A DNA stretch of 64,000 bases from Desulfurispira natronophila (GCF_014203025.1 NZ_JACHID010000010.1:12688-76687); one strand, 5' to 3'. Positions 1 through 31,370 are shown, counted from the stretch's first letter. The notes: a model not told the origin generated them from the sequence alone. Program-made: numbers and translations.

Positions 1-86
1 AATACATTTGAATTTCAAATAAACCATTGAAATAAAACACGCAAAGAACCATAAATCTTCTCAAGAATCTTCTCAATGAGGTCAAA

Positions 87-1469
87 ATGCCCACCCGTAA
101 TCAGCAGGCAAGGGAGCGACTGAATCACGTATTGTCCAGGCAGGCGGGTATCAGCGCCGCTGAACTTGCCAGCACGCTGAACATCAGCCTGGCCACTTTC
201 CATCGCCTCCTCAAGGATCGGCAGTCATCCATCCTGGTGACCGGCAAAGCCAGGCGCACGCGCTACGCCCTGCGGCGTCCCCTGCGGGGAGCCCTGAGCG
301 ATATCCCCGTATATCAGATTGACGAACAGGGCCGGATAAGCCCGCTTTCCACCCTGACGCCCGTCTATCCCGGTGGCTGCTGGATGTCCCTGGAAGGCAG
401 TCACTGGCCCGTGGATGACGAACAGCGGCAAGGCTGGTGGGACGGCCTCCCCTACCCGCTCTATCACCTCCAGCCCCAGGGATTTATGGGGCGCAGCTTT
501 GCCCGCGCCGTTCACCAGGCTCTGGAAGTGCCGGATAACCCACTCCTGTGGACCGATGATCAGCTCTTGCATGTGCTGATGCAAAAGGGCAGTGACCTCA
601 GCGGCAATATCATTGTGGGTGATCCCGCCTGCGAACGCTGGCAGCAGGGCAAGCTGAATCCGGTTTCGCCCATCAAGCCAGCAGAGCTGGAAGAACAGTA
701 CATCAACCTGGCTGAACAAGCCCTCAGTTCTGGCGATGCGGGCTCCAGCGCCGCCGGTGAATTCCCAAAATTCACCGCTATGCGCGAGCTGACAGGCAGC
801 GCCACTCCCCATGTTATTGTGAAGTTTTCCGGCGCCGACAAATCGGCAGCCGTTACGCGCTGGCGCGATCTGCTGGTATGCGAACATCTGGCCTTGCAGC
901 ATATTCAGGAATTGCCCGATCAGAGCGCCGCCCCAAGTCGCATCCTGCGCCATAACAACCGGACGTTTCTTGAAGTGGAGCGCTTCGACCGCCATGGACC
1001 GTTTGGCCGCAGCCCACTGATCAGCCTGGAAATTTTCAATGCTGCCCTGCTTGGCAAAGCTCCCGTCGACTGGACACAGCAGGCCGACGAGCTGTTCCGG
1101 GCAGGGCTGATAAGCAACGCACAGAGGGATTCCATCCACCTCCAGTGGTGGTATGGCAAGCTGATTGCCAACAGCGACATGCACCTGGGCAACCTGAGCT
1201 TCCGCCCACAACAGGGAACGCTGCAGCTGACCCCAAGCTACGACATGCTCCCCATGCTCTACGCACCCCTGGCAGGCGGCGAAGTGCCTCCGCGCCAGTT
1301 TGAACCCCCACTGCCCCTGCCACGCCAGCAGCAAACCTGGCTGACCGCCTGCCATGCCGCCATAGGGTTCTGGCTGGAGGCAGCGGAGGACTCGCGCATA
1401 ACCGACGACTTTCGCCAAACAGCCAGGGCGAACGGCCACCGGTTGATGGAACTGAGAGAGAAAATTTAA
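87..1469 (+). CDS. HipA-family Ser/Thr kinase with fused N-terminal helix-turn-helix (YjjJ/HipH-like toxin-type kinase)
   Basis: N-terminal HTH (AELASTLNISLATFHRLLKD) resembling E. coli YjjJ N-terminus; C-terminal HipA catalytic loop motif ANSDMHLGNLSF (HipA D-x-H-x-x-N signature); 460 aa. Confidence 0.7.
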   Translation: MPTRNQQARERLNHVLSRQAGISAAELASTLNISLATFHRLLKDRQSSILVTGKARRTRYALRRPLRGALSDIPVYQIDEQGRISPLSTLTPVYPGGCWMSLEGSHWPVDDEQRQGWWDGLPYPLYHLQPQGFMGRSFARAVHQALEVPDNPLLWTDDQLLHVLMQKGSDLSGNIIVGDPACERWQQGKLNPVSPIKPAELEEQYINLAEQALSSGDAGSSAAGEFPKFTAMRELTGSATPHVIVKFSGADKSAAVTRWRDLLVCEHLALQHIQELPDQSAAPSRILRHNNRTFLEVERFDRHGPFGRSPLISLEIFNAALLGKAPVDWTQQADELFRAGLISNAQRDSIHLQWWYGKLIANSDMHLGNLSFRPQQGTLQLTPSYDMLPMLYAPLAGGEVPPRQFEPPLPLPRQQQTWLTACHAAIGFWLEAAEDSRITDDFRQTARANGHRLMELREKI

Positions 1470-1480
1470 CGGGAAATCTG

Positions 1481-2086
1481 CTATAGTTCCTCGGTCCTGA
1501 ATTCACTATAACCCTCATAAAAATAGCTCACATCAATGCCCTTCATAAACAGGGTGCGGTCATTAATCTGATCGGTCAGGGCTTGTTGCAGCAAAACCAT
1601 GATTTCCACATCTTTCACCGGGCTGCGCTGCATGGCACAGAGGTATTCGTCCTTATCAACCCGGTTCCAGTCCACGACTTGCCTGATGGCGTTTTTCAGC
1701 ATCAGGTCTAGCCAGATGCGAGTGGCGCGGCCATTGCCCTCGCGGAAAGGGTGGGCGATGTTCATCTCCACGTATTTTTCGATAATCTGGTCAAAGGTGT
1801 CCTGTGGCATGGCGTCTATGTTTTTCAGCGCGGCCTCCAGGTACATCAGCGGCACAAAACGGAAATCGCCTTTTGCGATATTCACATCACGGACTTTCCC
1901 GGCAAAGTGATAAATATCGCCAAATAAATAGACATGAATAGAGGCCAGCCCGGCAAAGGTGCCGACTTCCACCTTGTTGATGTCGCCTGAATCGAACAGT
2001 TGTTTGGCCTTTTGCTTGCTGATTTTCTCTTCTGCCTTGGCCAGCTCGATTTGATCGGTGATGCTTAATATGTTTTCCAGGGTCAT
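1481..2086 (-). CDS. Fic family protein (FicT-like AMP-transferase toxin-type, class III with C-terminal inhibitory SxxxEG motif)
   Basis: Fic motif HPFREGNGRATR; C-terminal SYFYEG matches (S/T)xxxE(G/N) inhibitory helix motif; 201 aa; lower-GC coding. Confidence 0.85.
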   Translation of the reverse strand: MTLENILSITDQIELAKAEEKISKQKAKQLFDSGDINKVEVGTFAGLASIHVYLFGDIYHFAGKVRDVNIAKGDFRFVPLMYLEAALKNIDAMPQDTFDQIIEKYVEMNIAHPFREGNGRATRIWLDLMLKNAIRQVVDWNRVDKDEYLCAMQRSPVKDVEIMVLLQQALTDQINDRTLFMKGIDVSYFYEGYSEFRTEEL

Positions 2087-2342
2087 GCCTTATCCCCCCC
2101 AGCTTTTATAACCCTTCGAATTCGAGGGGTTTGGAGTACGGATTGAATTCTGAAACCACGAATGGGCACGAATACACACGAAAATTTCATAACACTATCT
2201 GCTGCTACTCGAGTTTGTGGGGTGAAGTTGAGGATCAGGCCGACATCCAGACCACTAACTGTGAGATAACTTTTATCTTGGCTTTTTCGACGTCTTTGCA
2301 TACCAATTCGTGTTTATTAGTGTTCATTCGTGGTTTGATCAT
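2083..2342 (-). pseudogene. GxxExxY-family (PD-(D/E)XK-like) gene remnant, internally deleted
   Basis: Minus-strand reading gives N-terminus MIKPRMNTNKHELVCKD (matches copy at 3645-4041) then a break; track ORF 2083-2301 retains family-typical C-terminal segment SYLTVSGLDVGLILNF. DNA about 85 percent identical to 3640-3730 and 3990-4045. Confidence 0.45.
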
Positions 2343-2385
2343 CTTCGCCCCAAAGAGCAATCAAGCTCACTCAGCTATTGGCGAG

Positions 2386-3486
2386 TCAAAAGTTGCAAAG
2401 ATAGCTCGTACTCCGCCCTCCACTGTCGCTTTTCCGCAGTAGCCCCTTGTCGATCAAGTCCCGAATGTCTCGGTGTGCCGTATCCTGGGAGCATTTTGTC
2501 ATTTTTGCCCACTTGCTGGTGGTGAGTTTGCCTTTAAAATCGGGCTCAAGTAGCCGCTGCAACATGGCTTGCTGGCGTTGGTTGAGGGGGATGTGGGCAT
2601 TATTGGCCCAGAATTTCTGCCGTTGCAGGATGTGCTGCAGGGTGTGCTCTGCGGTGGCGATGGCGGCCTCCAGGCAGTCCAGAAACCAGCGAATCCAGGA
2701 GGTAATGTCCATGGAGCCTTTCTGGGTAGCCTCCAGGATGTCATAGTACTCCTTGCGTTGAATAAGTATCTGGCTGGAAAGACTGTAAAATCGCTGGTGT
2801 GTGTTTTCGCTGTGGGCGAGGGACATATCGCCAATGGCGCGGGCAATGCGACCATTGCCATCGGCGTAAGGGTGGATGGTCACAAACCAAAGATGGGCGA
2901 TGGCCGCCCGTATGAGAGGTTCCTGATCGCCATGGGAGTTGTGCCACGTCAGAAATCGCTCCATCTCACTGGGAACAACCGAAGCCGGTGGTGCTTCGTA
3001 ATGGACTTTCTCTCGCCCATAGTATCCCGAAACCACCTGCATGGGGCCGTTTTCGTCGGTGCGCCAGGCACCTGTCGGAATGGTGGCAAGCCCGCTGCGG
3101 CCAGTGGGGAAAAGAGCCCCATGCCACGAGTGAAGTCGTTCGCTTGTGAGAGGCAGATGGTAATTTTGGGTGGCATCCAGCATCATTTCCACTACGCCAT
3201 CCACGTGATGGCTGGAGGGGACGAGTCCTCCATGGTTGATTCCCAGTCGCCTGGCGACGGAGGAACGAACCTGCTGGGGATTGAGGATTTCTCCTTCAAT
3301 TTCGCTGGTATGGACTACGTCTTGGGTAAGCGTTTCCATCCAGGCACTTTCCCGCAGGTCAAACCCGATATGCGCCATTTTCCCCAGCAGAATTCCCTGC
3401 TGGTAACGCACCCGCGAAAGGGTTTCTGTCAGCGTATCCAGATGATAGTGCCACGTGGGCCAGTCTTTCTTTTGCCAGATATACAT
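2386..3486 (-). CDS. Fic family protein with Fic_N (DUF4172-like) N-domain and C-terminal wHTH; class II (N-terminal TSEIEG inhibitory motif)
   Basis: Fic motif HPYADGNGRIARA; TSEIEG upstream of core; 366 aa. Confidence 0.85.
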   Translation of the reverse strand: MYIWQKKDWPTWHYHLDTLTETLSRVRYQQGILLGKMAHIGFDLRESAWMETLTQDVVHTSEIEGEILNPQQVRSSVARRLGINHGGLVPSSHHVDGVVEMMLDATQNYHLPLTSERLHSWHGALFPTGRSGLATIPTGAWRTDENGPMQVVSGYYGREKVHYEAPPASVVPSEMERFLTWHNSHGDQEPLIRAAIAHLWFVTIHPYADGNGRIARAIGDMSLAHSENTHQRFYSLSSQILIQRKEYYDILEATQKGSMDITSWIRWFLDCLEAAIATAEHTLQHILQRQKFWANNAHIPLNQRQQAMLQRLLEPDFKGKLTTSKWAKMTKCSQDTAHRDIRDLIDKGLLRKSDSGGRSTSYLCNF

Positions 3487-3644
3487 GGTTCACCGTAGTA
3501 GAGATGAGCGGCAGGTTGCGGAAAAGTCATCTGTGACGCTATCTCCACTGCCTGATTCGCGGTTTTTTTAGCAGGCCACCAGGCGCATTCTCCGCAAAAA
3601 ACACGGAGAATGCAAGCCTATTCTCCGCACAGCACACGAACTCT

Positions 3645-4041
3645 TCATAGCACTATCCGTTGCCACTCAAGTTTGGGGTGCTTGAAGTTAAGGATCAGAC
3701 CGACATTCAGGCCACTAATCTTGAGATAATTGATTATCTGGGCTATTTCGATATTGCCGATTTCCTCAATGTTTTGTGTCAACAATGATTTTGTCGAAGA
3801 CGATTAGGTCGGGAATATACTCTCCCACATTCAGTGATTTGTAGATAACAGGGAATCGGGGTTGTTGTGCATAGGGAATATCCTGTCGCCGAAATTCGAC
3901 GACGAGGGCGTTTTCATAGGGCTTTTCCAATAAACCATGACCAAGCGTGTTCAGCACTTTCAGCGCACAGCCAACAATTTGATATACCTCGTCTTTGCAT
4001 ACCAATTTGTGTTTATTCGTGTCCATTTGTGGTTTTATCAT
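3645..4041 (-). pseudogene. GxxExxY-family protein gene, apparently frameshifted (ORF 3766-4041 = 91 aa N-terminal part; conserved C-terminus in another frame)
   Basis: ORF contains GHGLLEKPYENAL (GxxExxY motif). Downstream, in a different frame on the same strand, 3645-3760 encodes ...EEIGNIEIAQIINYLKISGLNVGLILNFKHPKLEWQRIVL, the typical family C-terminus. Either a frameshift mutation or a sequencing error. Confidence 0.5.
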
Positions 4042-4052
4042 CCAGCCGCTCG

Positions 4053-7000
4053 TCAGCTTTCCGACTCAAGGGGCTGCAGCAGGTTCATCAGGTCATCGGC
4101 ATTGAACTGCAGGTCGGCTTCGCCGGAGCGGTTGCCGTACATACTGTCGGCGAGTGACTGTTTGCGCTGCTGCAGGTTGAGGATTTTTTCCTCCACTGTC
4201 TGCTCCGTCAGCAGTTTGTAGACAAAGACCGGTTTGTCCTGTCCGATGCGGTGGGCCCGGTCGGTGGCCTGATTCTCTGCAGCGGGGTTCCACCACGGGT
4301 CGTAGTGGATGACGGTGTCAGCAGCGGTGAGGTTCAGCCCGGTACCGCCGGCTTTGAGGGCGATGAGAAAGACCCTGGCGTCGCCATTCTGGAAGCGATC
4401 AATAGCTTCGTCCCGCTTGCGGGTCTGGCCGGTCAGCTTGGTGTAGGGAATCTGACACTCAATCAGTTCATTTTCGATGATACCCAGCATGGTAGTGAAT
4501 TGAGAAAATATCAGGATTTTGCGCTCCTCTGCCACCATGGGCTGCAACAAGCTCATCAGCAGATCCATCTTGGCAGATTGCTTGACACTGCGGGCCTGCT
4601 CCAGTTTTACCAGGCGGGGATCACAGCAGGTCTGGCGCAGCTTCAGCAGCGCATCCAGTATGGTGATCTGGCTGCGGTTAAATCCCTGCTGGTTGATGGC
4701 TTTGCGTACCTGCTGGTCCATGGCCAGACGAACGGACTCATAGAGGTCCCGCTGTTTCCCCTGCAGGGCGACGGTGCGGACAATTTCGGTTTTAGCCGGC
4801 AGCTCCTGGGCTACCTCCTGCTTGGTGCGGCGCAGCATGAAAGGGGTGACGCGCTGGCGCAGCTGTTGTTGACGCTCAGTGTCGTGCTGCTTTTCAATCG
4901 GGTTGCGGAATATGCGGGTAAACTCCTGCTGGGTTCCGAGGAAGCCGGGCATGAGGAAGTTGAACATGGACCACAACTCACCCAGGTGGTTCTCCATGGG
5001 AGTGCCGGTCAGGCACAGGCGGTGGTTGGCCTCCAGGCGCCCTATCAACCGGGTCGTTTTGGTATTGGCGTTCTTGATATACTGGGCTTCGTCCAGAATG
5101 ACGTAGTGAAAGGGCTGTTTGGCCAGCCGCTTGCTGTCACGGTTGATGAGGGGGTAGGTAGTGACCACCAGGTCGTAGTCTGCCAGATTGTCCAGCTGCT
5201 GGTGGCGCTCACTGCCATGGGAGATACATACGCGCAGATCCGGCGCAAAGCGCAGCGCTTCGTTGCGCCAGTTGCTCATCAGGCTGGTGGGAGCAATTAC
5301 CAGGCTGGGCAGCTGGCCCCGTCCGCTGTTCTTTTCCACCTGCAGGCAGGCCAGTACCTGCAGGGTTTTCCCCAGGCCCATGTCATCGGCCAGAATGCCG
5401 CTGAAGCCATACTCACGCAGGAACTGCAGCCAGTCCAGGCCCTTGTGCTGGTAATCCCGCAGGGTGGCCTGCAGGTTTTGTGGAACCTCCACTGGTTTGA
5501 TGCCCGAGAAACGGCTGAGCCTGTGGGCAATTTCCTGCAGCTGGCGGGCTCCCTGCCACTGGGTCTTTTCATCCTCCAGCAGCTCACCCAGGCTGGCAGC
5601 ACGAGGGCGGGAGAGCGTCAAGCTGCCGTCCTTGTTCAGGCTGCTCTTGTTATACAGCTCGGAAAGGCAGTGCAGGATGTGCTGTATGCGACTGGACTCA
5701 ATGCGGATCCAGCGGTTTTCGTCCAGCTTGGCATACACGTGCTCCATATCTTCCAGCGACTGCAGAAAGTGATCGCCTCCTCCCTGATTATGCAGGACGT
5801 CTATCAAAGTCGGCAGCAGGTTAATGTGCAGGTCGCCAACCTCAAAGCCCAGGCTCAGGTCAAACCAGCCGGAGCTGTGCTCCTGGATCTCCCCCTGAAA
5901 GTGACCCGCGTCATCAATCTGCAGAGAGAATCCCGAAGCGTGCTCAACCTGCCAACCCTCCTGCTTGAGCTGCTCCACGCCCTTTTCCAGAAACTCTGCC
6001 CAGACACACAGTTGACTTTCGTTCGCCGATACCCTGGCTACCATATCAAGGGGCCCCAGGTGCTCGTCTGAGCCGTCAGTGCTGGTGAAGCCCAACTCCT
6101 GCAGAGTGCTCAGAGCCATGATTTCAAAGTCCAGATCGCGATAGATGCGCTTGCGCTGGCCATCGGCGTGGATAATTACCGTGGGCTCGCTACCCAGGGA
6201 GTCCAGCTCATGGTCACCATAGACAAAGCGCAAAGAGGCCACATACAGGCTGGGAGTTTGGGCGTGGCAGTGCAGCCGCAGACGGGCCACCGGACTGTGA
6301 TAAACATCGACAATAGTGGCAGCCGCCACAGTGGCCGGAGTGGGTATTTCCGTATTTGGAAAGAGCTTGAGAAGCTCCTTGCTGACCTTTTTGGCCATGG
6401 CAGCCGGAATAGTGGGAGCCATCAGCATTCGGGATGTGTCGGCACCAGACAGACCATTGTAGTGGAGAGTACCGCAGCAGTTGCCCGGACCATCGAAGTA
6501 GTAGAGGGTGTCGCCGATGAGAAAGTGATCGGTGATGATTCTATTTTCTGAGCTGTAGCGCAGCTGGTAGCTGTTGCTCTTGGTATCGTGTTTCCAGCTT
6601 AGCGAAAGTGTGCGATCTTCAGCCGCAATAACCGGAAAAAACCTGTTGTCCCACTCCTGTGGATGGCACCAGTAGGCCTTGTCTATGGAGAAAAGATTGT
6701 GCAGGACATCGGTGTCCTCCTCTTCAGTCAGCAGCGCTGCTCCATTGTGTATCCTGGCTCCCCGTAATTGACGCAGAATGGTTTTATCTGACCTGGAATA
6801 ATCCGTAAAACTATCAACATAATCCTGAACTATGGCCATATCACGCAGGGGTAGGTATTGAAGGCGCTTTCCCAGGAGCCCGGATTTGAGTATATTTACC
6901 TCGCACACAAAAACACTGATATAGCGATAGGCAGGACTGTCCTGCACAGGATCAAGCAGATAGATCAGGGTTTTGTTCACGGCAGTGGAGGGATCCTTGG

Positions 7001-7436
7001 AGGTGGGTGCAGTTTTTTTCTCAGTGAGCGACAGAAGCCACTGAGCCACCTGCCTGTCCTGCTGAACCTTGGGGCGCTCGTGCCGGTGGTTTTGGACGTA
7101 TCCGAACTCAAGTAGTGTTGCCACAGAGTGCTTGCACCAGGAACCAACCGGACAACTGCAAGAGGCATTGAAAACCGTTCTGCTGCCGGCAGCAATAACC
7201 ACTACGGTGCTGTACTGCCAGGTTCCTGTTACTTTTGCGCGTAAAATGAGAACGTTTGAGTCCTTTTGGTGAGGTCCCAGAACCTTTTCCCACTGCTCCT
7301 TTTCCAGGAGAACCTTCCCGTTTTTCCAGTACTGGTAACCCCGCTGGATGCTCTGATTGGTAAATACCTTTTTTAAGTTGCTGTAGCCTATTCCGGCCCA
7401 CCCTGCCAGTGAGGATATCTCTTCTGATTGTTCCAT
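4053..7436 (-). CDS. SNF2-family (Swi2/Snf2) DNA-dependent ATPase/helicase with N-terminal SWIM zinc finger
   Basis: SWIM CxCx(n)CxH: SCSCPVGSWCKHSVATLLEF; SNF2_N motifs ILADDMGLGKTLQVLA (Walker A), DEAQYIKN (DExx), LTGTPMENHLGELWSMFNFL; helicase C-terminal domain; 1127 aa. Confidence 0.85.
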   Translation of the reverse strand: MEQSEEISSLAGWAGIGYSNLKKVFTNQSIQRGYQYWKNGKVLLEKEQWEKVLGPHQKDSNVLILRAKVTGTWQYSTVVVIAAGSRTVFNASCSCPVGSWCKHSVATLLEFGYVQNHRHERPKVQQDRQVAQWLLSLTEKKTAPTSKDPSTAVNKTLIYLLDPVQDSPAYRYISVFVCEVNILKSGLLGKRLQYLPLRDMAIVQDYVDSFTDYSRSDKTILRQLRGARIHNGAALLTEEEDTDVLHNLFSIDKAYWCHPQEWDNRFFPVIAAEDRTLSLSWKHDTKSNSYQLRYSSENRIITDHFLIGDTLYYFDGPGNCCGTLHYNGLSGADTSRMLMAPTIPAAMAKKVSKELLKLFPNTEIPTPATVAAATIVDVYHSPVARLRLHCHAQTPSLYVASLRFVYGDHELDSLGSEPTVIIHADGQRKRIYRDLDFEIMALSTLQELGFTSTDGSDEHLGPLDMVARVSANESQLCVWAEFLEKGVEQLKQEGWQVEHASGFSLQIDDAGHFQGEIQEHSSGWFDLSLGFEVGDLHINLLPTLIDVLHNQGGGDHFLQSLEDMEHVYAKLDENRWIRIESSRIQHILHCLSELYNKSSLNKDGSLTLSRPRAASLGELLEDEKTQWQGARQLQEIAHRLSRFSGIKPVEVPQNLQATLRDYQHKGLDWLQFLREYGFSGILADDMGLGKTLQVLACLQVEKNSGRGQLPSLVIAPTSLMSNWRNEALRFAPDLRVCISHGSERHQQLDNLADYDLVVTTYPLINRDSKRLAKQPFHYVILDEAQYIKNANTKTTRLIGRLEANHRLCLTGTPMENHLGELWSMFNFLMPGFLGTQQEFTRIFRNPIEKQHDTERQQQLRQRVTPFMLRRTKQEVAQELPAKTEIVRTVALQGKQRDLYESVRLAMDQQVRKAINQQGFNRSQITILDALLKLRQTCCDPRLVKLEQARSVKQSAKMDLLMSLLQPMVAEERKILIFSQFTTMLGIIENELIECQIPYTKLTGQTRKRDEAIDRFQNGDARVFLIALKAGGTGLNLTAADTVIHYDPWWNPAAENQATDRAHRIGQDKPVFVYKLLTEQTVEEKILNLQQRKQSLADSMYGNRSGEADLQFNADDLMNLLQPLESES

Positions 7437-7596
7437 AAGTGTACTCTTTTAGCGTAGTTTGTGAGGACAGTATGATACTGGGCAGCATAGCAGAATGCCG
7501 GAAAAAAAGCAGCTAGAACCAGTGATATACCTGGGGAGGGCAAGAAACATACTCATGCAATTCAGGATATGGTACAAAGTGCTGCAGGAGTGATGT

Positions 7597-8004
7597 ATGC
7601 AGCCCATTGACGTTACCTGCGCCATTATCGAACGTGATGACCAGATACTCATAGCCCAGCGCAGTGAGTCCATGTCTCTGCCGCTGAAATGGGAGTTTCC
7701 CGGAGGTAAAATCCGTGCCGGTGAAAGTCCTTCCGATTGCCTGGTGCGTGAAATTGATGAGGAGCTGGGGGTGAAAGTCACGGTTGTGGCTGCCCTCCCT
7801 TTGGTGACCCATCACTATCCGGAAATCGCTGTTACTCTGCATCCTTTCGTTTGTACTCAGATCAGCGGCGATCTCGTGCTGGCAGAACACGTTGACTGCT
7901 GCTGGGTAAACCTTGAAAGTTTAAGCAGTTATGATCTGGCGGCAGCGGATATTCCCGTTGTGCAAAGCTATGCCCGCTATCGCCGGAATGAGAGGGCAGA
8001 GTGA
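7597..8004 (+). CDS. NUDIX hydrolase (MutT-like nucleoside triphosphate pyrophosphohydrolase)
   Basis: Nudix box GGKIRAGESPSDCLVREIDEELGV (GX5EX7REUXEEXGU); 135 aa; stop overlaps next gene start (ATGA at 8001-8004). Confidence 0.85.
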   Translation: MQPIDVTCAIIERDDQILIAQRSESMSLPLKWEFPGGKIRAGESPSDCLVREIDEELGVKVTVVAALPLVTHHYPEIAVTLHPFVCTQISGDLVLAEHVDCCWVNLESLSSYDLAAADIPVVQSYARYRRNERAE

Positions 8005-11000
8005 AGAACCAGCAGGGGTTTTACGAGCAGGTTATCTATGAATTACTGCAGAGTGAAATCAGTCGCTTGCCGGCAGATTCGTGGCAAGTGGAAAAGGCTG
8101 CAATAGATAAGGCTGATTCACACGAAATACTGGCGGACTACCTGGCAGGGCTTATCAAAAAAGCTTTCCAGTCACTGCCACAGCAGGGTCGACTGGAAAG
8201 GCAAATCCAGTTGGCAAACGATATCATTGATCGCCTTCAGCGCAGTGAAAACATGCAAGAATTTGAGTCCTTCAAGGTTTCCAAAGAAGCCAAGGTACTG
8301 CACAGCATTCTACATATCTCACAGCTTCAGCCTAAAACCCGGCCGGTAAGCGGCCTCAGTCAGTGCTCTCTCTTTACTGGCGCAGCCATGGAACCAAGTC
8401 TTGCCAGTGAGCTGCAGAAGGAAATTGCCACATCTCACCGCATAGATATTCTCATGTCCTTTATCCGCTGGAGTGGTCTGCGAATAATCGCCGATGAACT
8501 TATTGACTTCACCCAAAATAGGGGTGGGCACTTGCGCATTATCACCACCACCTATATGGGGGCGACAGAAATCGCCGCTCTGAACTTCTTGAGTAAACTC
8601 CCCAACACCGAGATACGCGTTTCTACCGACAACAAGCGCACACGTTTGCACGCTAAGGCCTACTACTTCTACCGTAACACGGGGTTTTCCACCGCCTATG
8701 TGGGCTCATCCAATATTTCGAATCCCGCTTTGACCACCGGGCTCGAGTGGAACATGAAGATATCCCAAGTCCATGAACCCCATATCTTAAAGAAATTTGA
8801 GGGCACCTTTGAGAGCTACTGGAATAGCCCTGACTTCCTCGCATACTCTGCAGAATCTCATAAAGAAATAGCTGAATCCCTTGAGTCATACTCAGGCAAG
8901 CAAAGTGAATCAGCGGCCTTTCAGTTTGATATCAGACCATACCCTTTCCAAAAAGAAATTTTAGAAAAACTCCAAGCAGAGCGTGAGGTCCACGACAAGT
9001 GGAAAAACTTAGTGGTCGCAGCAACGGGTACCGGCAAGACCGTCATCGCTGCTTTTGACTTCAAGCGCTTTCGTGAAAAATACCCCCAAGCTCGCTTTCT
9101 CTTTATTGCACACCGTCAAGAAATTCTTACCCAGAGCCTCTACTGTTTTCGAGGCATATTGCGAGATCAGAATTTTGGGGAACTCTTTGTGGGCAACCAT
9201 ACTCCCAACCAGTTTAACCATCTCTTTGTTTCGGTGCAGATGCTCCACTCCCAGCAGCTCTGGCGCAAACTTCCCAAGGATCACTACGACTACATTGTGG
9301 TTGATGAATTCCACCACGCTGAAGCCAACACCTATCGCCAATCCCTCACCTTCTTCACCCCCAAGATACTGCTTGGGCTGACCGCCACACCTGAGCGAAT
9401 GGATGGTGGCGACATTCTGGGCTACTTTGACAATCGCATAGCGGCAGAAATTCGCCTGCCGGAAGCGATTGAGCGGGGCCTATTGGCACCATTTCAGTAT
9501 TTTGGCGTAAGTGACTCAACCAACTACAAGAATTTAACATGGAGCCGAGGGGGATATAAGAACTCAGAGCTGGAAAGGCTACTCACTGGCAATGACCTGC
9601 GACTTCAAATTGTTCTCAACGCACTGGAAAAGTATATTCCTTCGCAGGAAAACGTGGTGGGACTTGGCTTTTGTGTCAGCGTTGCCCACGCCGAATACAT
9701 GGCAGAGGCCTTTTGCCAGCGAAGTATCCCTGCCGCTGCCTTGACCTCACATTCAGATGCCGCAACCCGTGAGCAAGCAAGAAATCAACTGGAACGAAGA
9801 GAGATCAGGTTTATTTTCACCGTTGACCTGTTCAATGAGGGCGTCGATATTCCTGCCGTCAATACCGTGCTCTTCTTGCGTCCAACGGAAAGCCTGACCA
9901 TATTTTTGCAGCAACTTGGCCGCGGGCTTCGACTCTATGAAGGCAAAGAGTGCCTGACGGTTCTCGATTTTATCGGGCAAGCTCATCAGAGTTTTCGCTA
10001 TGATCAGCGCTTTCGCGCCCTTGTGGGACGTACAAACGCCGCCGTTCAGCGGGAAGTGGAAGAAAGCTTCCCGCACTTACCCAGTGGATGCGTCATTAAA
10101 CTGGAGCGTACCGCCAAAGAGCACGTCCTAAATAACATTCGCTCCGCCATCAGCAACAACCGACGCGCACTGGTACGGCAAATAGCCAATTTCGAAGTGG
10201 AGTACCGTCAGCCACTCTCTTTGCAACATTTCGTGGAAGCGTATCAGCTTGATTTGAGCGCACTATATCGTAGAGGAAACTGGTCTGAACTCTGCGCTGA
10301 TGCCGGGGTCATCCAAGAGTACAACGATCCCCATCGAAAGTATTTTGCCAGTGCCATGAAGCGTATCTTGCACTTCGATTCGCGACGCATGATCCAAGCG
10401 CTACAAGCGATTCTGGATGGGAAAACCCCAGCAGCCGGGCAAACCAATACCCTCTTGCAGCATATGCTTTACATCAGTATCTGGCAAAAGCCACTTGACT
10501 CCCACGGCTTTTCAACGCTTCAAGAAGCTTGGCAGTGCTTGCGGGATAATCGGCAAGTAGTTTCAGAAATGCGCCAACTCCTGAAACTGCTCCACCACTC
10601 AATTCATTTTGTCGATACCCCACCAAATTTGCCATTTGAGTGCCCACTGGACTTACACTGTCACTACACCAGAGATGAAATACTTGCCGCCTTGGGTGAG
10701 GCCTCGCCAACAGCTATTCCGGCCTTCCGTGAAGGCGTTAGGTACGTGAAGCACAGCAATACGGACGTTCTCTTGGTTACACTCAACAAATCCGAAGAAC
10801 ACTATTCGCCAACAACCATGTACGATGACTATGCCATCAGTGAAGAGCTTTTCCACTGGCAATCGCAAAGCACGACTTCGGTAGAGTCACCCACTGGACA
10901 GCGCTATCTCAGGGGAACCAGTAATGTTTTGCTGTTTGTGCGCGAGAACAAGAAAGTTGATGGAATTACCATGCCCTATTGCTTTTTAGGACCAGTACAA

Positions 11001-11105
11001 TATGCTCGACATGATGGCAGCAAGCCAATTAGCATTGTGTGGAAGCTCAAGCACTCGCTCCCAGCTCAACTATGGCGAGAGACCGGCAGACTGGCGGCAG
11101 TGTAA
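8001..11105 (+). CDS. Fusion protein: N-terminal phospholipase-D-family (HKD) nuclease domain + SF2 DEAD/DEAH (ResIII-like) helicase + C-terminal DUF3427-like region
   Basis: HKD motif RLHAKAYYFY...GSSNISN; Walker A ATGTGKT; motif II DEFHHAE; helicase C region (VDLFNEGVDIP, QQLGRGLR); long C-terminal extension typical of DUF3427 helicases; 1034 aa. Confidence 0.8.
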   Translation: MKNQQGFYEQVIYELLQSEISRLPADSWQVEKAAIDKADSHEILADYLAGLIKKAFQSLPQQGRLERQIQLANDIIDRLQRSENMQEFESFKVSKEAKVLHSILHISQLQPKTRPVSGLSQCSLFTGAAMEPSLASELQKEIATSHRIDILMSFIRWSGLRIIADELIDFTQNRGGHLRIITTTYMGATEIAALNFLSKLPNTEIRVSTDNKRTRLHAKAYYFYRNTGFSTAYVGSSNISNPALTTGLEWNMKISQVHEPHILKKFEGTFESYWNSPDFLAYSAESHKEIAESLESYSGKQSESAAFQFDIRPYPFQKEILEKLQAEREVHDKWKNLVVAATGTGKTVIAAFDFKRFREKYPQARFLFIAHRQEILTQSLYCFRGILRDQNFGELFVGNHTPNQFNHLFVSVQMLHSQQLWRKLPKDHYDYIVVDEFHHAEANTYRQSLTFFTPKILLGLTATPERMDGGDILGYFDNRIAAEIRLPEAIERGLLAPFQYFGVSDSTNYKNLTWSRGGYKNSELERLLTGNDLRLQIVLNALEKYIPSQENVVGLGFCVSVAHAEYMAEAFCQRSIPAAALTSHSDAATREQARNQLERREIRFIFTVDLFNEGVDIPAVNTVLFLRPTESLTIFLQQLGRGLRLYEGKECLTVLDFIGQAHQSFRYDQRFRALVGRTNAAVQREVEESFPHLPSGCVIKLERTAKEHVLNNIRSAISNNRRALVRQIANFEVEYRQPLSLQHFVEAYQLDLSALYRRGNWSELCADAGVIQEYNDPHRKYFASAMKRILHFDSRRMIQALQAILDGKTPAAGQTNTLLQHMLYISIWQKPLDSHGFSTLQEAWQCLRDNRQVVSEMRQLLKLLHHSIHFVDTPPNLPFECPLDLHCHYTRDEILAALGEASPTAIPAFREGVRYVKHSNTDVLLVTLNKSEEHYSPTTMYDDYAISEELFHWQSQSTTSVESPTGQRYLRGTSNVLLFVRENKKVDGITMPYCFLGPVQYARHDGSKPISIVWKLKHSLPAQLWRETGRLAAV

Positions 11106-11130
11106 TGACGAACCGGGAGGCAGAAAACTT

Positions 11131-11472
11131 ATGAACATTTGGTTTGAGTACCTTTACCGGGATGCTGGTAATAATAAAATATGGGGCGAAGTGGTTTTTT
11201 GCAACACAAAGACATTTTCCACCGAAGAACTTGAAACGCTGATAAGAAGTAGCCTTATTGATGGCGAGTTCTTTGACCCGGATGGCCTTGGATTGCCTGA
11301 GTTACAGTTTGACTCGTGGGACAGTGAGTTGGATCACGGCTGGTATGAGTATAATTGTGTAGCAACAACGGACAATGCTCCCACTGACGAGAAAGGGCGT
11401 GATATCGGCGACTTTATCACTGATCTTCAGGCATCCACTAAAATCGTTAATCAGATTATAAAGAGAGAGTAA
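11131..11472 (+). CDS. hypothetical small protein (113 aa), co-oriented 25 bp downstream of PLD-helicase gene
   Basis: ORF with GGAGG-like RBS (cgggaggcagaaaacttATG); acidic C-terminal half; no recognisable domain. Confidence 0.4.
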   Translation: MNIWFEYLYRDAGNNKIWGEVVFCNTKTFSTEELETLIRSSLIDGEFFDPDGLGLPELQFDSWDSELDHGWYEYNCVATTDNAPTDEKGRDIGDFITDLQASTKIVNQIIKRE

Positions 11473-11483
11473 CCGAGAACACC

Positions 11484-11870
11484 ATGATACAGTGGACAGA
11501 ACCGCATGAATCCTGGATGAATGACTGGAAGATGGGGCTTTCACCTTCCGAGGAGGAAGAGATATCAAGAGCATTGCTGGAAATTTTCCGGCAATTCTGG
11601 CACTGGGCCGAGCTGGACAAGAAGGCGAAAGTGACACAGCGCAGGTACGGTGCTTCTCTGCATGCCCTTGGTGGCTGGGCTGTGGAAAAGATGCTTGAAG
11701 ACGAGGAACTGCAGGAGCCGGGGTATGTTCGACCGAGCCTTTATCAGCTGCTGGTGGATGCTACATTCCTGCAAGGGCCTTTGATCCACTATGATAATAA
11801 AAAGTGGCAGAGTGAGGTCGATACCGTATGCCGGAAGCTGCACAAGTTTCTGGTATCGCGGGGTGAGTAA
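11484..11870 (+). CDS. hypothetical protein (128 aa), 11 bp downstream of previous ORF
   Basis: Compact spacing suggests same operon; no recognisable domain. Confidence 0.4.
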   Translation: MIQWTEPHESWMNDWKMGLSPSEEEEISRALLEIFRQFWHWAELDKKAKVTQRRYGASLHALGGWAVEKMLEDEELQEPGYVRPSLYQLLVDATFLQGPLIHYDNKKWQSEVDTVCRKLHKFLVSRGE

Positions 11871-11903
11871 GGCAGGTGTCTTGCGCAAAGTTTGCTGATT
11901 AGC

Positions 11904-12053
11904 AGCTTGCTGAAATACTTTACATCGGCAGGCAAATGAAAAATCCTCCAGGTGCAAGGCGCTCGCAGAGCGAGGAATGAGGCGTACCTGGAGTACGCTG
12001 CAGTGACGAGCGACCGCGAGCAACACCGCAGAAGGAGGTTTTTCAGCAGCCTG
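11904..12053. repeat. MITE-like dispersed repeat, copy A (about 150 bp; terminal inverted repeats cagcttgctgaaa / tttcagcagcctg)
   Basis: About 93 percent identical (reverse complement) to 15754-15904; shares ends with copies at 17041, 31323, 40053, 43553, 52454. Confidence 0.75.
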
Positions 12054-12090
12054 TTAACGAGTGATCCACTGCCTCCTGGGGGTATCGACC

Positions 12091-12483
12091 ATGAAGCGAG
12101 ATGCCATTGTCAATCTGCTGCAGACAAAAGTTCCCAACCTGCTGGCGATCTACACTTTTGGCAGTCGCGTCCAGCAGGCGGCAACCAGTGAAAGTGATCT
12201 TGACCTGGCGGTGCTGGTAGAGGGGTACGTTGATCCCCTGTTGCTGTGGGAGCTTTCCGGTGAGCTGGCGACACTTGTTGACTGCGATGTTGATTTGCTG
12301 GATATGCGGGCGGCTTCCACGGTTATGCAGTATCAGGTTATTGTCACTGCTGAGCGCTGGTGGACACGGGATGTACAGGCCGGTATTTTCGAAGCCATGG
12401 TGCTGAGCGAAAAGACCGAGCTGGACTGTGCCCGTGCGGATTTGCTGGAAGATATTCGCCGGGAGGGGAAGATTTATGGCTGA
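12091..12483 (+). CDS. Nucleotidyltransferase-domain protein (MNT-type antitoxin of HepT/MNT toxin-antitoxin pairs)
   Basis: Pol-beta NTase motif GSRVQQAATSESDLDLAV; about 130 aa from the Met at MKRDAIVNLL. Confidence 0.75.
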   Translation: MKRDAIVNLLQTKVPNLLAIYTFGSRVQQAATSESDLDLAVLVEGYVDPLLLWELSGELATLVDCDVDLLDMRAASTVMQYQVIVTAERWWTRDVQAGIFEAMVLSEKTELDCARADLLEDIRREGKIYG

Positions 12484-12553
12484 TGATGTGCTGATTAACA
12501 AGACGGCTGACAAATCTCAGGGTGGCCGTGAGTGGTTACTCAGCAAGCTGTAA
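12476..12553 (+). pseudogene. HepT (DUF86) toxin gene remnant, truncated after about 10 conserved codons
   Basis: ATG overlaps MNT stop (ATGGCTGA); encodes MADDVLINKTADKSQGGREWLLSKL*; the first 9 residues match the canonical HepT N-terminus (M.D.[IL][IL]NK), then it diverges and stops. Confidence 0.4.
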
Positions 12554-12645
12554 AGCGTAAAGCGGATGAAACTCACTTCGGAATTTACTCTTGCGCCTGC
12601 AGGTGGTAATCTGCAGCAGTCCATCTTGCCAGAGGAAGGGGTTTC

Positions 12646-13659
12646 ATGAAAATATCCGCATCACTGTACAGCAGCAAAGACACGCCGCTCCCCCAGCTCA
12701 TGCAGGAGCTGGACAACCTGCATATTGACTATATTCACATTGACTGCAACGACGATCTTTCTGTCTTTGACGACATTGAGGAGATCCGGACGATCAGTCG
12801 CACGCCTATTGATATTCACATTATTTCCGACGATCCGGCCAAGTTTTATCCCGCCCTGCAGAAGCACCGCCCGGAACTGGTGACGTTCCAGCACGAAAAT
12901 CTGCGCGGGCCCTTGCCTCCGCTGCCGGTGGGTGTCAAGAGTCGTATCGGGGTGGCTTTTGTCAGCGATACGCCCATCGAGGCCTTTGAGCACTATCGTC
13001 CCTTGTGCTCTTTTGTGCTCTTTATGACCACGGTGCCGGGCCAGAGTGGCGGTCAGTTTGATCAGGATACTTTCCAGAAGATTCGCCAATTTCAGGAGCG
13101 TTACCCCGGTACTCGCATCCATGTGGATGGCGGGGTCAACGACGAGGTCTCCTTTATCCTGCGCAACATGGGTGTCTACTGCAGTGTTTCCGGCTCCTAC
13201 CTGATGCAGGCCAAGGACAAGCCCGGTGCCCTGCTGCGTCTGCGCAGCCCCTACATCGAGGGGCAGTACCGGGTGCGGGACTTTATGATTCTGCGTCATG
13301 AGCTGCCGGTGATTGCTGAAAGTGACGCCAATGATCTGCGTCAGCTGCTGGTATGTGTTCACGAATCGCGCCAGGGTTTTGCGTTGGTGGCGGATGCGGA
13401 CGGCAAGCTGGCGGGGATTGTCACGGACCGGGATATTCGCGCTGCTCTGATCAAGCACCTGGATGACCTGGAGGCGATCTGTTCCAGCGATCTCATTAAC
13501 CCCCGGCCGGTAACCGTCGATGGTGACAGTACTATTGGCCAGATGCTGGAGCTGATTCGCGACTGCCCCTTCCCCATTCGCTTTCTTCCGGTGGTGGACT
13601 CCGACAACACCTTGATTGGAGCCATTGCCTTTAACAATCTCATCAAAGGTGAATTATGA
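12646..13659 (+). CDS. Two-domain protein: N-terminal ribulose-phosphate 3-epimerase-fold (RPE-like TIM barrel) + C-terminal CBS-domain pair
   Basis: RPE-like motifs IHIDCNDD (cf. IHVDVMDG), IDIHII (cf. LDVHLM), VLFMTTVPGQSGGQF (cf. VLLMSVNPGFGGQ.F), IHVDGGVN (cf. IEVDGGV); C-terminal CBS-like repeats (VTDRDIRAALIKHLDDL, IGAIAFNNLIKGEL); good RBS gaggaagggg. Confidence 0.7.
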   Translation: MKISASLYSSKDTPLPQLMQELDNLHIDYIHIDCNDDLSVFDDIEEIRTISRTPIDIHIISDDPAKFYPALQKHRPELVTFQHENLRGPLPPLPVGVKSRIGVAFVSDTPIEAFEHYRPLCSFVLFMTTVPGQSGGQFDQDTFQKIRQFQERYPGTRIHVDGGVNDEVSFILRNMGVYCSVSGSYLMQAKDKPGALLRLRSPYIEGQYRVRDFMILRHELPVIAESDANDLRQLLVCVHESRQGFALVADADGKLAGIVTDRDIRAALIKHLDDLEAICSSDLINPRPVTVDGDSTIGQMLELIRDCPFPIRFLPVVDSDNTLIGAIAFNNLIKGEL

Positions 13660-14657
13660 TTGTCCACATAGCCTCGGATGCTCCCAAAGAGCTGATTCAG
13701 CAGTGTGTTGAGCACTATCAGGCGTTTGTTATTGACGATGCTGGCCAGCAAGCGCTGGTCACCTCGTCCCAGGTTAAAAAGCTGGATGAGCGTTTTACTT
13801 CACTGGCCGAGCGCACCTTCGCTTTTGACAGTGATATCCAGCTGGCCAGTCGCCTGTATCAGGGCGGCACCCGCACCATTGAACTCCCCGGCGGCATCAC
13901 GGTTGGTGGTGACACTGGCCATACCGCTTTTATCAGCGGTCCCTGCTCAGTGGAGTCGGAAGGACAGATCGAAACCGTAGCTCAGGCATTGCAGCAAAGT
14001 GGCATCAAAATACTGCGGGCGGGTTGTTACAAACCCCGCACCTCGCCATACTCCTTCCAGGGAATGGCGGAAGAGGGACTGCAGATACTGGACCGGGTCC
14101 GCAAAAAGTATGGCCTGGGTATTATCACGGAAGTGCGCGATGCGACCCACGTAGATCAGGTGATTGAGTACAGCGATATTATCCAGATTGGCGCCAAGGC
14201 CATGTATGATCAGGGCATTTTGCGCCGCTGCGCCACTATTCGCAAGCCGGTGCTGCTGAAGCGGGGCTTTGGCACCAACCTGCAGGAGTTTGTGCAGGCG
14301 GCGGAATTTATCCTCAGTGGTGGTAACCCCAATGTCATGCTGTGCGAGCGCGGCATTCGCACCTTCGAGACCAAGACCCGCTTTACCCTGGATCTGTGCG
14401 GTGTGGCCTATTTGAAAGAGCACACCAATTTGCCCATTTTTGTCGATCCCTCCCATGCCATGGGCTACGCCTATGGTGTGGCCGACCTTACCCGGGCTAG
14501 CACCGCCATGGGTGTAGATGGCTTGCTCATCGAGTCCCATCCAAACCCCAGGGAGGCCCTTTCTGACGCCTCCCAGCAGCTGACGCTGGAGCAGATGGCC
14601 CAGCTGCGACAGAGTATTGTCCCCGTGGCCCAGGCCGTGGGTCGCACGGTGGTTTGA
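13656..14657 (+). CDS. 3-deoxy-7-phosphoheptulonate (DAHP) synthase, class I-beta, Thermotoga type with N-terminal ferredoxin-like regulatory domain
   Basis: LRAGCYKPRTSPYSFQG, LCERGIRTFETKTRFTLDL, VDPSHAMG, LLIESHPNPREALSDASQQL match DAHPS I-beta signatures (not KDO8P synthase); N-terminal MIVHIAS... region about 95 aa; start overlaps upstream stop. Confidence 0.85.
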   Translation: MIVHIASDAPKELIQQCVEHYQAFVIDDAGQQALVTSSQVKKLDERFTSLAERTFAFDSDIQLASRLYQGGTRTIELPGGITVGGDTGHTAFISGPCSVESEGQIETVAQALQQSGIKILRAGCYKPRTSPYSFQGMAEEGLQILDRVRKKYGLGIITEVRDATHVDQVIEYSDIIQIGAKAMYDQGILRRCATIRKPVLLKRGFGTNLQEFVQAAEFILSGGNPNVMLCERGIRTFETKTRFTLDLCGVAYLKEHTNLPIFVDPSHAMGYAYGVADLTRASTAMGVDGLLIESHPNPREALSDASQQLTLEQMAQLRQSIVPVAQAVGRTVV

Positions 14658-15745
14658 GCATGGCACAACCTGTCGCCCTTGTTCCGGTGCTGGATGAGGC
14701 GTGTGTTCAGTGGCAGTACGGTGGCAAGCCTCTGTGTCTCAGTGTGGCCGATACGCTGGCGGCACTGCTGGGCGCGGAGCAGGTGGTATTCCTCACCCCC
14801 CGGGCCTCAGTTGCCGCCGCTCTGGATGGCAGTGGCTATTCGCTGATTGCTGTCCATGCCCGTGACAGCATCAGCCGGATACAGCAGCATCCGGCCCTGC
14901 GGGAATCTGCCGGGCAACCGCTGCTGGTGGTACCCCCCCAGTGGCCCCTTTGTCGTGGGGGTACCCTGAAGGCACTGCTGGACAGTGCTGCCGGAGGCGC
15001 TTCGGGCCTGGCCCTGCCGCCACTTTTAATGCGCAACCAGGCTGTTCATGCCGCCCTGATGGCTCAGATAGAGCAGTGGGAAACGCTTCCTCTGGACCAG
15101 TTTACGGTGCCTGCGGCCCTGTCAGCTGGCAGTGGCAGGCCGGTAGCCCTGCAGATGGATGGCAGTGAGTCTTTGGCTGTTTTTTGCGAGGATGACCTGA
15201 TGCGCTTGCCGGTTTCGTACGTCTCTCCCGGTCATCAGCCGGATATTCGCATGCTGGTACTGGATGTGGATGGGGTTATGACCGATGGCGGCATGTACTA
15301 TCTGGAAACGGGCCAGGAGCTCAAAAAGTTCTCTACCCGCGATGGCATTGCCATCAAACGTCTGCTGCGCATGGGAATCGAGGTGGCTTTCCTCAGCTCC
15401 GGCCTGAATACCAGTCTGCTGGAGTCCCGCGCTCGTACGCTGGGCGTGCAGCGCCTCTATGTGGGAACGGACGAAAAGACGGTTATTTTGCAGCAGTGGC
15501 TGGATGAGATGGGACTGCTGCCGGAGCAGATTGCCTATATCGGGGACGATATCAACGATCTGGGTGTGATGGCCATGGTGGGCCTCAGCGCCTGCCCTGC
15601 CGATGCGGTGGACATGATCCGCCAGCGGGTACAGGTGGTGTTGCAGAGCCGTGGTGGAGAAGGCTGTGTGCGGGAGTTTGTGGGACGTTACATCTGCTCC
15701 GACGAGGAGGCGGTGGCCCGCAGGAATCAGAGTCACCCACAGTGA
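14654..15745 (+). CDS. Fusion: N-terminal about 190-aa domain of uncertain identity (weak KdsB/cytidylyltransferase-like GGKPL segment) + C-terminal KdsC-type HAD phosphatase (3-deoxy-ulosonate-phosphate phosphatase, YrbI family)
   Basis: C-terminal IRMLVLDVDGVMTDGGMYY...STRDG...YIGDDINDLGVM closely matches KdsC; N-domain lacks the canonical PARxxSxR P-loop; start overlaps upstream stop. Confidence 0.7.
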   Translation: MSMAQPVALVPVLDEACVQWQYGGKPLCLSVADTLAALLGAEQVVFLTPRASVAAALDGSGYSLIAVHARDSISRIQQHPALRESAGQPLLVVPPQWPLCRGGTLKALLDSAAGGASGLALPPLLMRNQAVHAALMAQIEQWETLPLDQFTVPAALSAGSGRPVALQMDGSESLAVFCEDDLMRLPVSYVSPGHQPDIRMLVLDVDGVMTDGGMYYLETGQELKKFSTRDGIAIKRLLRMGIEVAFLSSGLNTSLLESRARTLGVQRLYVGTDEKTVILQQWLDEMGLLPEQIAYIGDDINDLGVMAMVGLSACPADAVDMIRQRVQVVLQSRGGEGCVREFVGRYICSDEEAVARRNQSHPQ

Positions 15746-31322: not shown

Positions 31323-31370
31323 GGGATTTATCCTCATTTGCCTGTCGATTGAGAGCATTTCAGCAAGCTG
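31323..31370. repeat. MITE-like repeat fragment, copy D (right-end 48 bp) in the 5-prime leader of the class II DAHPS gene
   Basis: gggatttatcctcatttgcctgtcgattgagagcatttcagcaagctg versus copy B aggatttttcatttgcctgtcgattaagagtatttcagcaagctg. Confidence 0.65.

Follow-up and report, generated by a model that had tools for sequence, protein, structure and literature searches.

A conserved epimerase–aldolase–phosphatase triad in Desulfurispira natronophila, most likely a module for a Kdo-like sugar acid

Introduction

[quoted passage not shown] The question is raised by a 64,000-nucleotide stretch of the Desulfurispira natronophila genome (GCF_014203025.1, NZ_JACHID010000010.1:12688-76687; hereafter the window, with positions counted from its first base), in which three consecutive genes encode a ribulose-phosphate 3-epimerase (RPE) fold joined to a CBS pair (gene 1), an aldolase that uses phosphoenolpyruvate (PEP) and resembles type Iβ synthases for the 7-phosphate of 3-deoxy-D-arabino-heptulosonate (DAHP; gene 2), and a protein ending in a KdsC-type phosphatase (gene 3). 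A first-pass annotation, made from the sequence of the window, had taken these genes for a Kdo-shaped module of non-canonical parts and not for a shikimate-pathway enzyme with chance neighbors, and this core idea holds up: the triad is conserved, its aldolase forms its own clade, and orthologues lie in capsule loci. We regard the triad as a widely conserved module, most likely for a Kdo-like sugar acid. More specifically, we propose a dedicated epimerase, PEP-aldolase, and phosphatase module that would release a free 3-deoxy-2-ulosonic acid and would be distinct from entry into the shikimate pathway, a reading to which we give a probability of roughly 0.7.

Results and discussion

A conserved three-gene unit

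All three open reading frames (ORFs) lie on the plus strand exactly where the first-pass annotation had placed them (Table 1). Gene 1, which has the ribosome-binding site GAGGAAGG on its 5' side, shares a true ATGA overlap with gene 2 at 13656-13659, as had been claimed. The second overlap that had been reported, between genes 2 and 3, is conditional on the start codon: gene 2 stops at a TGA (14655-14657), which gene 3 overlaps if it starts at the TTG at 14654, and the NCBI version of gene 3 (P0271, 361 aa) uses the ATG at 14660, 2 nt past that stop. No terminator-like site was found between the three genes, and a single operon, tightly packed with either gene 3 start, is the best explanation.

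Relatives of the RPE-CBS fusion number in the thousands in databases. A scan of one genome per species, with ~18 kb taken per locus, yielded 64 loci carrying the fusion, almost all of them from Bacteroidota (Crocinitomicaceae, Fluviicola, Cyclobacteriaceae, Roseivirgaceae, Saprospiraceae, and others), plus one gammaproteobacterial metagenome-assembled genome. Gene order was counted in 67 loci, comprising those from the genome scan and metagenomic loci: a DAHP-synthase-like gene was found downstream of the fusion in 59 of the 67 and a KdsC-like gene in 54, stops and starts mostly abutted or overlapped, and exceptions to the gene order were mostly contig ends. Non-triad neighbor families each occurred in no more than 21 loci, and the recurring ones were housekeeping or lineage-syntenic. 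The triad, whose conservation the first-pass annotation had left to be checked, is kept as a unit, and its arrangement is far beyond chance.

Neighbors that were enriched in the Bacteroidota loci (AlaDh_PNT_N, an ATG22-like MFS transporter, a hydrolase, DCC1-like, Lgt, GcvT, and Der) were examined as possible functional partners and rejected, since they reflect lineage synteny only. Two loci (L037, 3-1384; L061, 1-1247) have the HAD phosphatase gene directly after the RPE-CBS gene, with no synthase in between. A plasmid search returned no match.

Gene 1, a putative epimerase with a KdsD-like CBS pair

Gene 1 matched the Pfam family Ribul_P_3_epim over its full length (E 9e-23, residues 2-186) and contained two CBS stretches, giving a layout of a (beta/alpha)8 barrel with RPE fold (residues ~1-200) followed by a CBS pair (~205-337). 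Its AlphaFold model (predicted local distance difference test, pLDDT, 90.6) superposed on RPE structures in Foldseek with template modeling (TM) scores of 0.76-0.80 at 19-27% identity, which agrees with the Pfam match and with the RPE-plus-CBS architecture first suggested for this gene. Like ribulose-5-phosphate and allulose-6-phosphate 3-epimerases, gene 1 has the His/Asp/His/Asp metal site, the two catalytic aspartates, and the phosphate loops: the metal and acid-base residues (H31, D33, H58, and D161) and the phosphate-binding residues (G135-G136, G162-G163, and G183-S184) were invariant across 21 homologues. Unlike these epimerases, it is fused to a CBS pair, its beta2-alpha2 loop is shortened from MDGxFVPN to CNDD, the beta4 His is replaced by Gln, of three cushioning Met residues two have given way to Cys or Ile, and its scores fall below the cut-offs of both curated NCBIfam RPE models (92.9 bits against 165 and 73.1 bits against 212.6). 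The gene 1 product is 100% identical to an NCBI protein of D. natronophila, and its closest database match outside this species is 56% identical.

In Foldseek, CBSX proteins and arabinose-5-phosphate isomerases offered CBS pairs on which the modeled pair superposed, and the best profile matches to this region were KpsF/GutQ/KdsD isomerase models. The CBS part alone matched TIGR00393 (positions 156-267, 38 bits against a cut-off of 203.7), and a Pfam search found no SIS domain in gene 1, which therefore does not have the KdsD/KpsF architecture. From its sequence and predicted structure, we consider gene 1 a putative sugar-phosphate epimerase that would catalyze the first step of the module.

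Gene 2, a DAHP-synthase-like aldolase in a clade of its own

Gene 2 belongs to DAHP_synth_1 and consists of an N-terminal domain of ~77 aa and a catalytic barrel (78-333). It exceeded the cut-offs of the NCBIfam DAHP synthase models (PRK08673, 353.2 bits against 335; TIGR01361, 311.7 bits against 267.75), fell short of both models for Kdo 8-phosphate synthase (KDO8PS; 119.8 bits against 242 and 114.5 bits against 314), and carries the motif KPRTSPYSFQG (KPRTS) instead of the KANRS of KdsA, all of which bears out its earlier assignment to the Iβ type of DAHP synthase (DAH7PS). The barrel matched DAH7PS structures from Pyrococcus furiosus, Aeropyrum pernix, and Thermotoga maritima with E values of 1e-69 to 1e-75 and, like these enzymes, retains the metal ligands C97/H267/E293/D304, the KPRT motif (K126-P-R-T129), and the PEP ligands K202/R203 and R232. 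Residue roles in DAH7PS, including the ligands of erythrose 4-phosphate (E4P) and the PEP-binding Arg, follow PMC6362186, and gene 2 has no change in the E4P ligands that are defined by crystal structures (Arg and Thr of KPRT, plus the metal Asp). The Thermotoga-like regulatory N-terminal domain that had also been proposed stands less firmly: the Pfam model of the ferredoxin-like DAHP synthase domain (PF18152) gave no match, and hhalign gave a full-length but weak alignment to ferredoxin-like domains (probability 50%, E 1.6e-4), suggesting that this domain is possibly a divergent member of that fold.

Outside the triad group, the best matches to gene 2 in a search of 1.84 billion representatives were at most 50% identical. 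Catalytic domains within the clade were 64-73% identical to one another, against 42-66% (median 47%) to representative Iβ DAHP synthases. In a neighbor-joining tree of 199 catalytic domains, a phylogeny that had been proposed as a check on this gene, all 57 triad-linked sequences and one representative formed a single clade (bootstrap 64) with fixed substitutions of its own: 16 positions were fixed in the triad clade and rare elsewhere. The signature of the clade is R181K, Q184Y, N185D, L188I, Y218F, H258N, and Y273-G274, the first three of which fall in the canonical GARNxQN motif; position 181 is Lys in 100% of the triad clade and Arg in 97% of other Iβ sequences, and the Arg of this G-A/S-R motif is a PEP ligand that is completely conserved in reference DAH7PSs (PMC6362186). 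A longer replacement (DPSH..GRR by DPSHAMGYAYG) was rejected as a diagnostic because the stretch varies among ordinary Iβ enzymes and just positions 273-274 stay clade-specific. The next sequence outside the clade in the tree was a single-chain fusion of a DAHP synthase with a HAD domain; in the fusion P0122 (L086 72-1637, 521 aa), a triad-type DAHP-synthase-like enzyme is joined to a KdsC-like HAD domain, which independently supports a functional coupling of the synthase and phosphatase steps.

This evidence bears on two more conventional accounts of the locus. In the first, gene 2 would be the DAHP synthase of ordinary aromatic biosynthesis among chance neighbors. Gene 2 is indeed annotated and scored as a DAHP synthase, and leuB, an amino-acid biosynthesis gene, lies downstream of the triad after a 215-bp spacer. 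We nevertheless consider this account highly improbable, because a KdsC-type phosphatase partner would destroy the DAHP needed by the shikimate pathway, the triad is kept as a unit across phyla with gene 2 in a separate clade that, unlike shikimate DAH7PS, is always paired with RPE-CBS and KdsC-like genes and never with shikimate genes, orthologues occur in capsule loci (see below), and the window encodes a second DAHP synthase. The latter, a class II enzyme recognized in the first-pass annotation, is real, though it lies on the minus strand and spans 29964-31358 and not 29964-31322; it scored 613.2 bits on TIGR01358, just under the equivalog cut-off of 614.7, and is the probable shikimate-pathway isozyme.

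In the second account, which we judge rather unlikely, gene 1 would be a regulated ribulose 5-phosphate (Ru5P) 3-epimerase that boosts flux to E4P, and the product would be 3-deoxy-D-arabino-heptulosonate, made straight from E4P. The complete set of RPE catalytic and phosphate-binding residues in gene 1 would suit such a role, as would the intact E4P ligands and DAHP synthase scores of gene 2, but the low identity of gene 1 to RPEs, its scores far under their cut-offs, and its altered substrate-lining motifs speak against it, as does an ordinary rpe that coexists with the fusion in L049, 3.5 kb apart. A feedback-sensing CBS pair would also best fit a committed step, and the 16 clade-specific changes in gene 2, including the replacement of the PEP-binding Arg by Lys, would be left over.

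Gene 3, a KdsC-type phosphatase behind a probable cytidylyltransferase relic

Residues 198-343 of gene 3 passed the cut-off of the KdsC subfamily model TIGR01670 (147.3 bits against 106.95) and fell below that of the KdsC equivalog NF007019 (147.1 bits against 208), and the C-terminal domain matched KdsC structures in the PDB (E 7e-36), in line with the KdsC-type phosphatase first recognized there. The HAD motifs DxDGV.TDG, SSG, K275, and GDDxND were invariant in the alignment (D204/D206, S248-S249, K275, and D298/D299/D302). A KdsC-family phosphatase acting on a PEP-derived ulosonate phosphate is also part of the Bacteroides thetaiotaomicron pathway to 2-keto-3-deoxy-D-glycero-D-galacto-nononic acid (Kdn), where a CMP-Kdn synthetase completes the set. 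Unlike that pathway, which has a NeuB-type Kdn-9-P synthase, the triad has a DAHP-synthase-type enzyme, and the KDN-9-P phosphatase model gave 137-143 bits on the KdsC-type domains, below its equivalog cut-off of 180.

The N-terminal domain of gene 3 (residues 1-195) has a sequence unique to D. natronophila, with no Pfam match even at E=10 and no similarity to two cytidylyltransferases in BLASTP, and it was modeled by AlphaFold (AF2) with low confidence (pLDDT 27-79, against 84-96 for the C-terminal domain). It aligns positionally with the intact CTP_transf_3 domains of cytidylyltransferase-HAD fusions, against which it shows a deletion of the PAKGxSxRVPxKN loop and no longer has the DSDS motif. 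CTP_transf_3 (PF02348) is intact in the relatives P0338, P0285, and P0298, and the window's gene 3 does not qualify as a CMP-ulosonic acid synthetase. We read this domain, from the alignment, as a degenerate cytidylyltransferase relic, so the faint KdsB-like character that had been noted in it was essentially right, with the catalytic loop gone.

Many gene 3 orthologues of Bacteroidota (~221-232 aa; L010, L015, and L021-L066) instead have a ~70-aa N-terminal helix-turn-helix of the XRE type (PF01381/PF12844), as in P0276, P0290, and P0347 among others. The rationale for a DNA-binding domain in this position is not obvious.

An extended cassette in capsule loci

In a second group of loci (class B), which takes in Campylobacter loci and capsule-export clusters from metagenomes, further genes join the triad: a cytidylyltransferase-phosphatase fusion (CTP_transf_3-HAD), a pairing reminiscent of NeuA-type cytidylyltransferase-phosphatase fusions, and an RraA-like gene. 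In L005, the triad stands among Poly_export, Wzz, and ABC transporter genes and is followed by the CTP_transf_3-HAD fusion, the RraA-like gene, and a Capsule_synth-type gene; the same four-gene cassette is found in L094. The Campylobacter lari cassette (L092) is followed, at 7148-12941, by genes for a CysD/CysN-type sulfate adenylyltransferase, a CitMHS-family transporter, an adenosine 5'-phosphosulfate (APS) kinase, and a sulfotransferase fused to a segment resembling O-methyl phosphoramidate (MeOPN) transferases, a context that suggests a sulfated capsule sugar. In Campylobacter jejuni (L095, GCA_053314255.1), the cassette is part of the kps capsule locus and has KpsS (675 bits, cut-off 600) and MeOPN-transferase-like genes as neighbors. 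Divergent from it (L095 3223-7811, minus strand) is a second operon with a KdsB-type cytidylyltransferase (207 bits, cut-off 193), an HMGL-like aldolase, a HAD phosphatase, an AraD-type L-ribulose-5-P 4-epimerase (344 vs 257), and a methyltransferase, which may be another unusual CMP-sugar pathway in this capsule locus. L089 holds a more divergent sister version, in which the RraA-like gene and one for a cytidylyltransferase lie upstream.

Cassette-type cytidylyltransferases co-occurred with RraA-like genes in class-B loci only, neither being present in the 64 genome-scan loci, and every cassette with a cytidylyltransferase has an RraA-like protein. The best NCBIfam match of the latter is to the C-terminal half of 'bifunctional hexulose-6-phosphate synthase/ribonuclease regulator', so RraA-like domains are paired with barrels that bind ribulose phosphates in two settings of no relation to each other. 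At the signature positions of genes 1 and 2, the window, C. jejuni, C. lari, L005, L094, and Bacteroidota have the same or almost the same residues, which argues from sequence for one isofunctional group.

The adjacency of triad orthologues to KpsS/KpsC-type genes resembles that of kpsF and kpsU in group 2 capsule loci, and the likeness to the Kdo pathway (KdsD/KpsF-KdsA-KdsC-KdsB/KpsU) extends to the steps themselves: a first enzyme with a C-terminal CBS pair that supplies the sugar phosphate, PEP condensation by a member of the DAHPS/KDO8PS superfamily, a KdsC-family phosphatase and, in the class-B relatives, a CTP_transf_3 step. Unlike the Kdo pathway, the first enzyme of the triad has an RPE fold and not SIS, its aldolase is an Iβ DAH7PS (KPRT) and not a KDO8PS, the cytidylyltransferase of the relatives is not KdsB-like and is fused to a phosphatase (that of the window being degenerate), and an RraA-like protein is added.

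These likenesses could mean that the triad is a non-orthologous route to ordinary Kdo, in which gene 1 would make arabinose 5-phosphate (A5P), e.g., by 2-epimerizing ribose 5-phosphate through the 1,2-enediolate used by KdsD, with gene 2 in the role of KDO8P synthase and gene 3 in that of KdsC. Such a route would account for the KpsF/KdsD-like CBS pair, the KdsC subfamily score of gene 3, and the housekeeping-like context in Bacteroidota. It would also serve the need for Kdo that is implied by LpxB and an MsbA-like transporter encoded in the window, in which, as in the ~18-kb flanks of the triad loci, we detected no kdsA, kdsB, or kdsD. Some archaeal Iβ DAHP synthases, moreover, take 5-carbon sugars. 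Yet gene 2 has KPRT and not KANRS and reached just 115-120 bits on KDO8PS models with cut-offs of 242-314, and the cassette cytidylyltransferase is far from KdsB (30 bits, against 47 bits for its best match, PseF). Campylobacter has a canonical Kdo pathway, and the cassette is an addition in the C. jejuni capsule locus, which has a KdsB-type cytidylyltransferase apart from it. A replacement of Kdo synthesis is disfavored because of this DAHPS-type active site and this additional cassette, and we think it quite unlikely.

Proposed pathway and product

In the module that we favor, the RPE-like barrel of gene 1 would epimerize a sugar phosphate via its retained metal site and two-aspartate proton transfer, with the KdsD-like CBS pair probably sensing a nucleotide or the end product. 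Gene 2 would then condense the epimerized sugar phosphate with PEP, and the KdsC-like domain of gene 3 would take off the terminal phosphate. We infer that the steps follow this order and that they yield neither Kdo nor the DAHP of the shikimate pathway. In class-B loci, the cassette may feed a CMP-activated Kdo-like sugar into the capsules of Campylobacter and other bacteria; in D. natronophila, where the cytidylyltransferase domain is degenerate, any activation would have to take place elsewhere.

The intact KPRT site, which is of the E4P type, makes a 7-carbon acid the most likely product. The first-pass annotation had already suggested a 7-carbon heptulosonate from a tetrose-phosphate epimer, related to sugars of the Dha type (see below), a proposal that is attractive chemically and fits this site. 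Gene 2 may take as its substrate D-threose 4-phosphate formed from E4P, a one-carbon-shorter analogue of the conversion of Ru5P to xylulose 5-phosphate. Since E4P equals Ru5P minus its C1 hydroxymethyl group, the two-base chemistry of RPE would transfer directly, giving 3-deoxy-D-lyxo-heptulosonate, the 7-carbon homologue of Kdo. We put this product forward tentatively, its lyxo configuration being deduced from the chemistry. More doubtful still is the fuller proposal, in which the RPE-CBS protein would be a new aldose-phosphate 2-epimerase (E4P to D-threose 4-phosphate) and lyxo-heptulosonate would be CMP-activated and placed in capsules, including that of C. jejuni.

The catalytic residues kept in gene 1, gene 2, and the HAD domain of gene 3 favor a working module. 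Several observations weigh against our interpretation. As all known E4P ligands are unchanged, gene 2 offers no positive sign of a substrate other than E4P, and RPE-family enzymes are known for the epimerization of ketose phosphates and not of aldose phosphates. The 64 genome-scan loci have housekeeping neighbors, and no glycan fate is evident there. In the 64-kb window, we detected no RraA-like gene, cassette cytidylyltransferase, glycosyltransferase, exporter, or capsule gene, and the triad borders a defense and toxin-antitoxin (TA) island, so it could be a decaying import. Finally, the full-text literature, including the Raushel-lab papers on the C. jejuni capsule, yielded no published description of the cassette or of a bacterial 7-carbon ulosonic acid.

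The window's copy and its surroundings

Genes 1 and 3 of the window are closest by similarity to the class-B cassette versions, and the pathway is truncated here, which the first-pass annotation had missed, with a degenerate cytidylyltransferase, no RraA-like gene, and no nearby glycan genes. Upstream of the triad, window positions 1-11105 form the defense/TA island (Table 1). Between the island and gene 1, an MNT-type nucleotidyltransferase gene is followed by a 23-codon frame, DDVLINKTADKSQGGREWLLSKL, which had no Pfam match and resembles the N-terminal remainder of a truncated HepT/HEPN toxin that adjoins the triad on its upstream side.

These features raise the prospect that D. natronophila has here what is left, without function, of a capsule cassette gained by horizontal transfer, an explanation that the missing cassette parts, the adjoining island with its apparently truncated toxin gene, and the lack of a close database relative (the next gene 1 match being 56% identical) would all fit. 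We consider it unlikely. None of the three ORFs is disrupted, and no signature or catalytic residue has been lost from gene 1, gene 2, or the HAD domain; in the 64 genome-scan loci, too, the triad is normally found, and is conserved, with no cytidylyltransferase.

Table 1. Positions of the triad, of other features of the window, and of RraA-like genes in class-B loci.
Feature	Position	Strand	Remarks
Gene 1, RPE-fold and CBS-pair protein	12646-13659	+	337 aa ORF
Gene 2, type Iβ DAHP-synthase-like PEP aldolase	13656-14657	+	333 aa ORF
Gene 3, whole ORF	14654-15745	+	363 aa if TTG start
Gene 3 N-terminal domain, read as degenerate CTP_transf_3 cytidylyltransferase relic	14654-15238	+	Residues 1-195; positional alignment with fusions
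Gene 3 C-terminal domain, KdsC-type HAD-IIIA phosphatase	15239-15745	+	Residues ~196-363; TIGR01670 and PDB KdsC matches
Class II DAHP synthase (context, outside the module)	29964-31358	-	TIGR01358 full-length match
HipA-family toxin	87-1469
Fic-like	2386-3486	-
SNF2 helicase with ZorD/DrmD-like matches	4053-7436	-
NUDIX	7597-8004
PLD, ResIII helicase, and DUF3427 protein	8001-11105
MNT-type nucleotidyltransferase (Polbeta/NTP_transf_2), then 23-codon frame	12061-12555		Frame: DDVLINKTADKSQGGREWLLSKL*
RraA-like gene, L005	8948-9607
RraA-like gene, L092	6474-7136
RraA-like gene, L094	11164-11817
RraA-like gene, L095	11175-11837
RraA-like gene, L089	5481-6131

Implications

If our interpretation is right, a DAHP synthase paralogue that annotation pipelines name as a shikimate enzyme would be an enzyme of a surface-sugar pathway, and this would correct a systematic mis-annotation of the capacity for aromatic biosynthesis; the paralogue is present in at least 64 species-level genomes, mostly of Bacteroidota, and in Campylobacter capsule loci. 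The RPE-CBS fusion would represent convergent pathway assembly, with another fold in the position of KdsD that carries a KdsD-type regulatory CBS pair. [quoted passage not shown] For the major pathogen C. jejuni, the cassette would point to an unrecognized capsule sugar and, in both C. jejuni and C. lari, to an uncharacterized capsule determinant that would bear on serotyping and on the design of conjugate vaccines.

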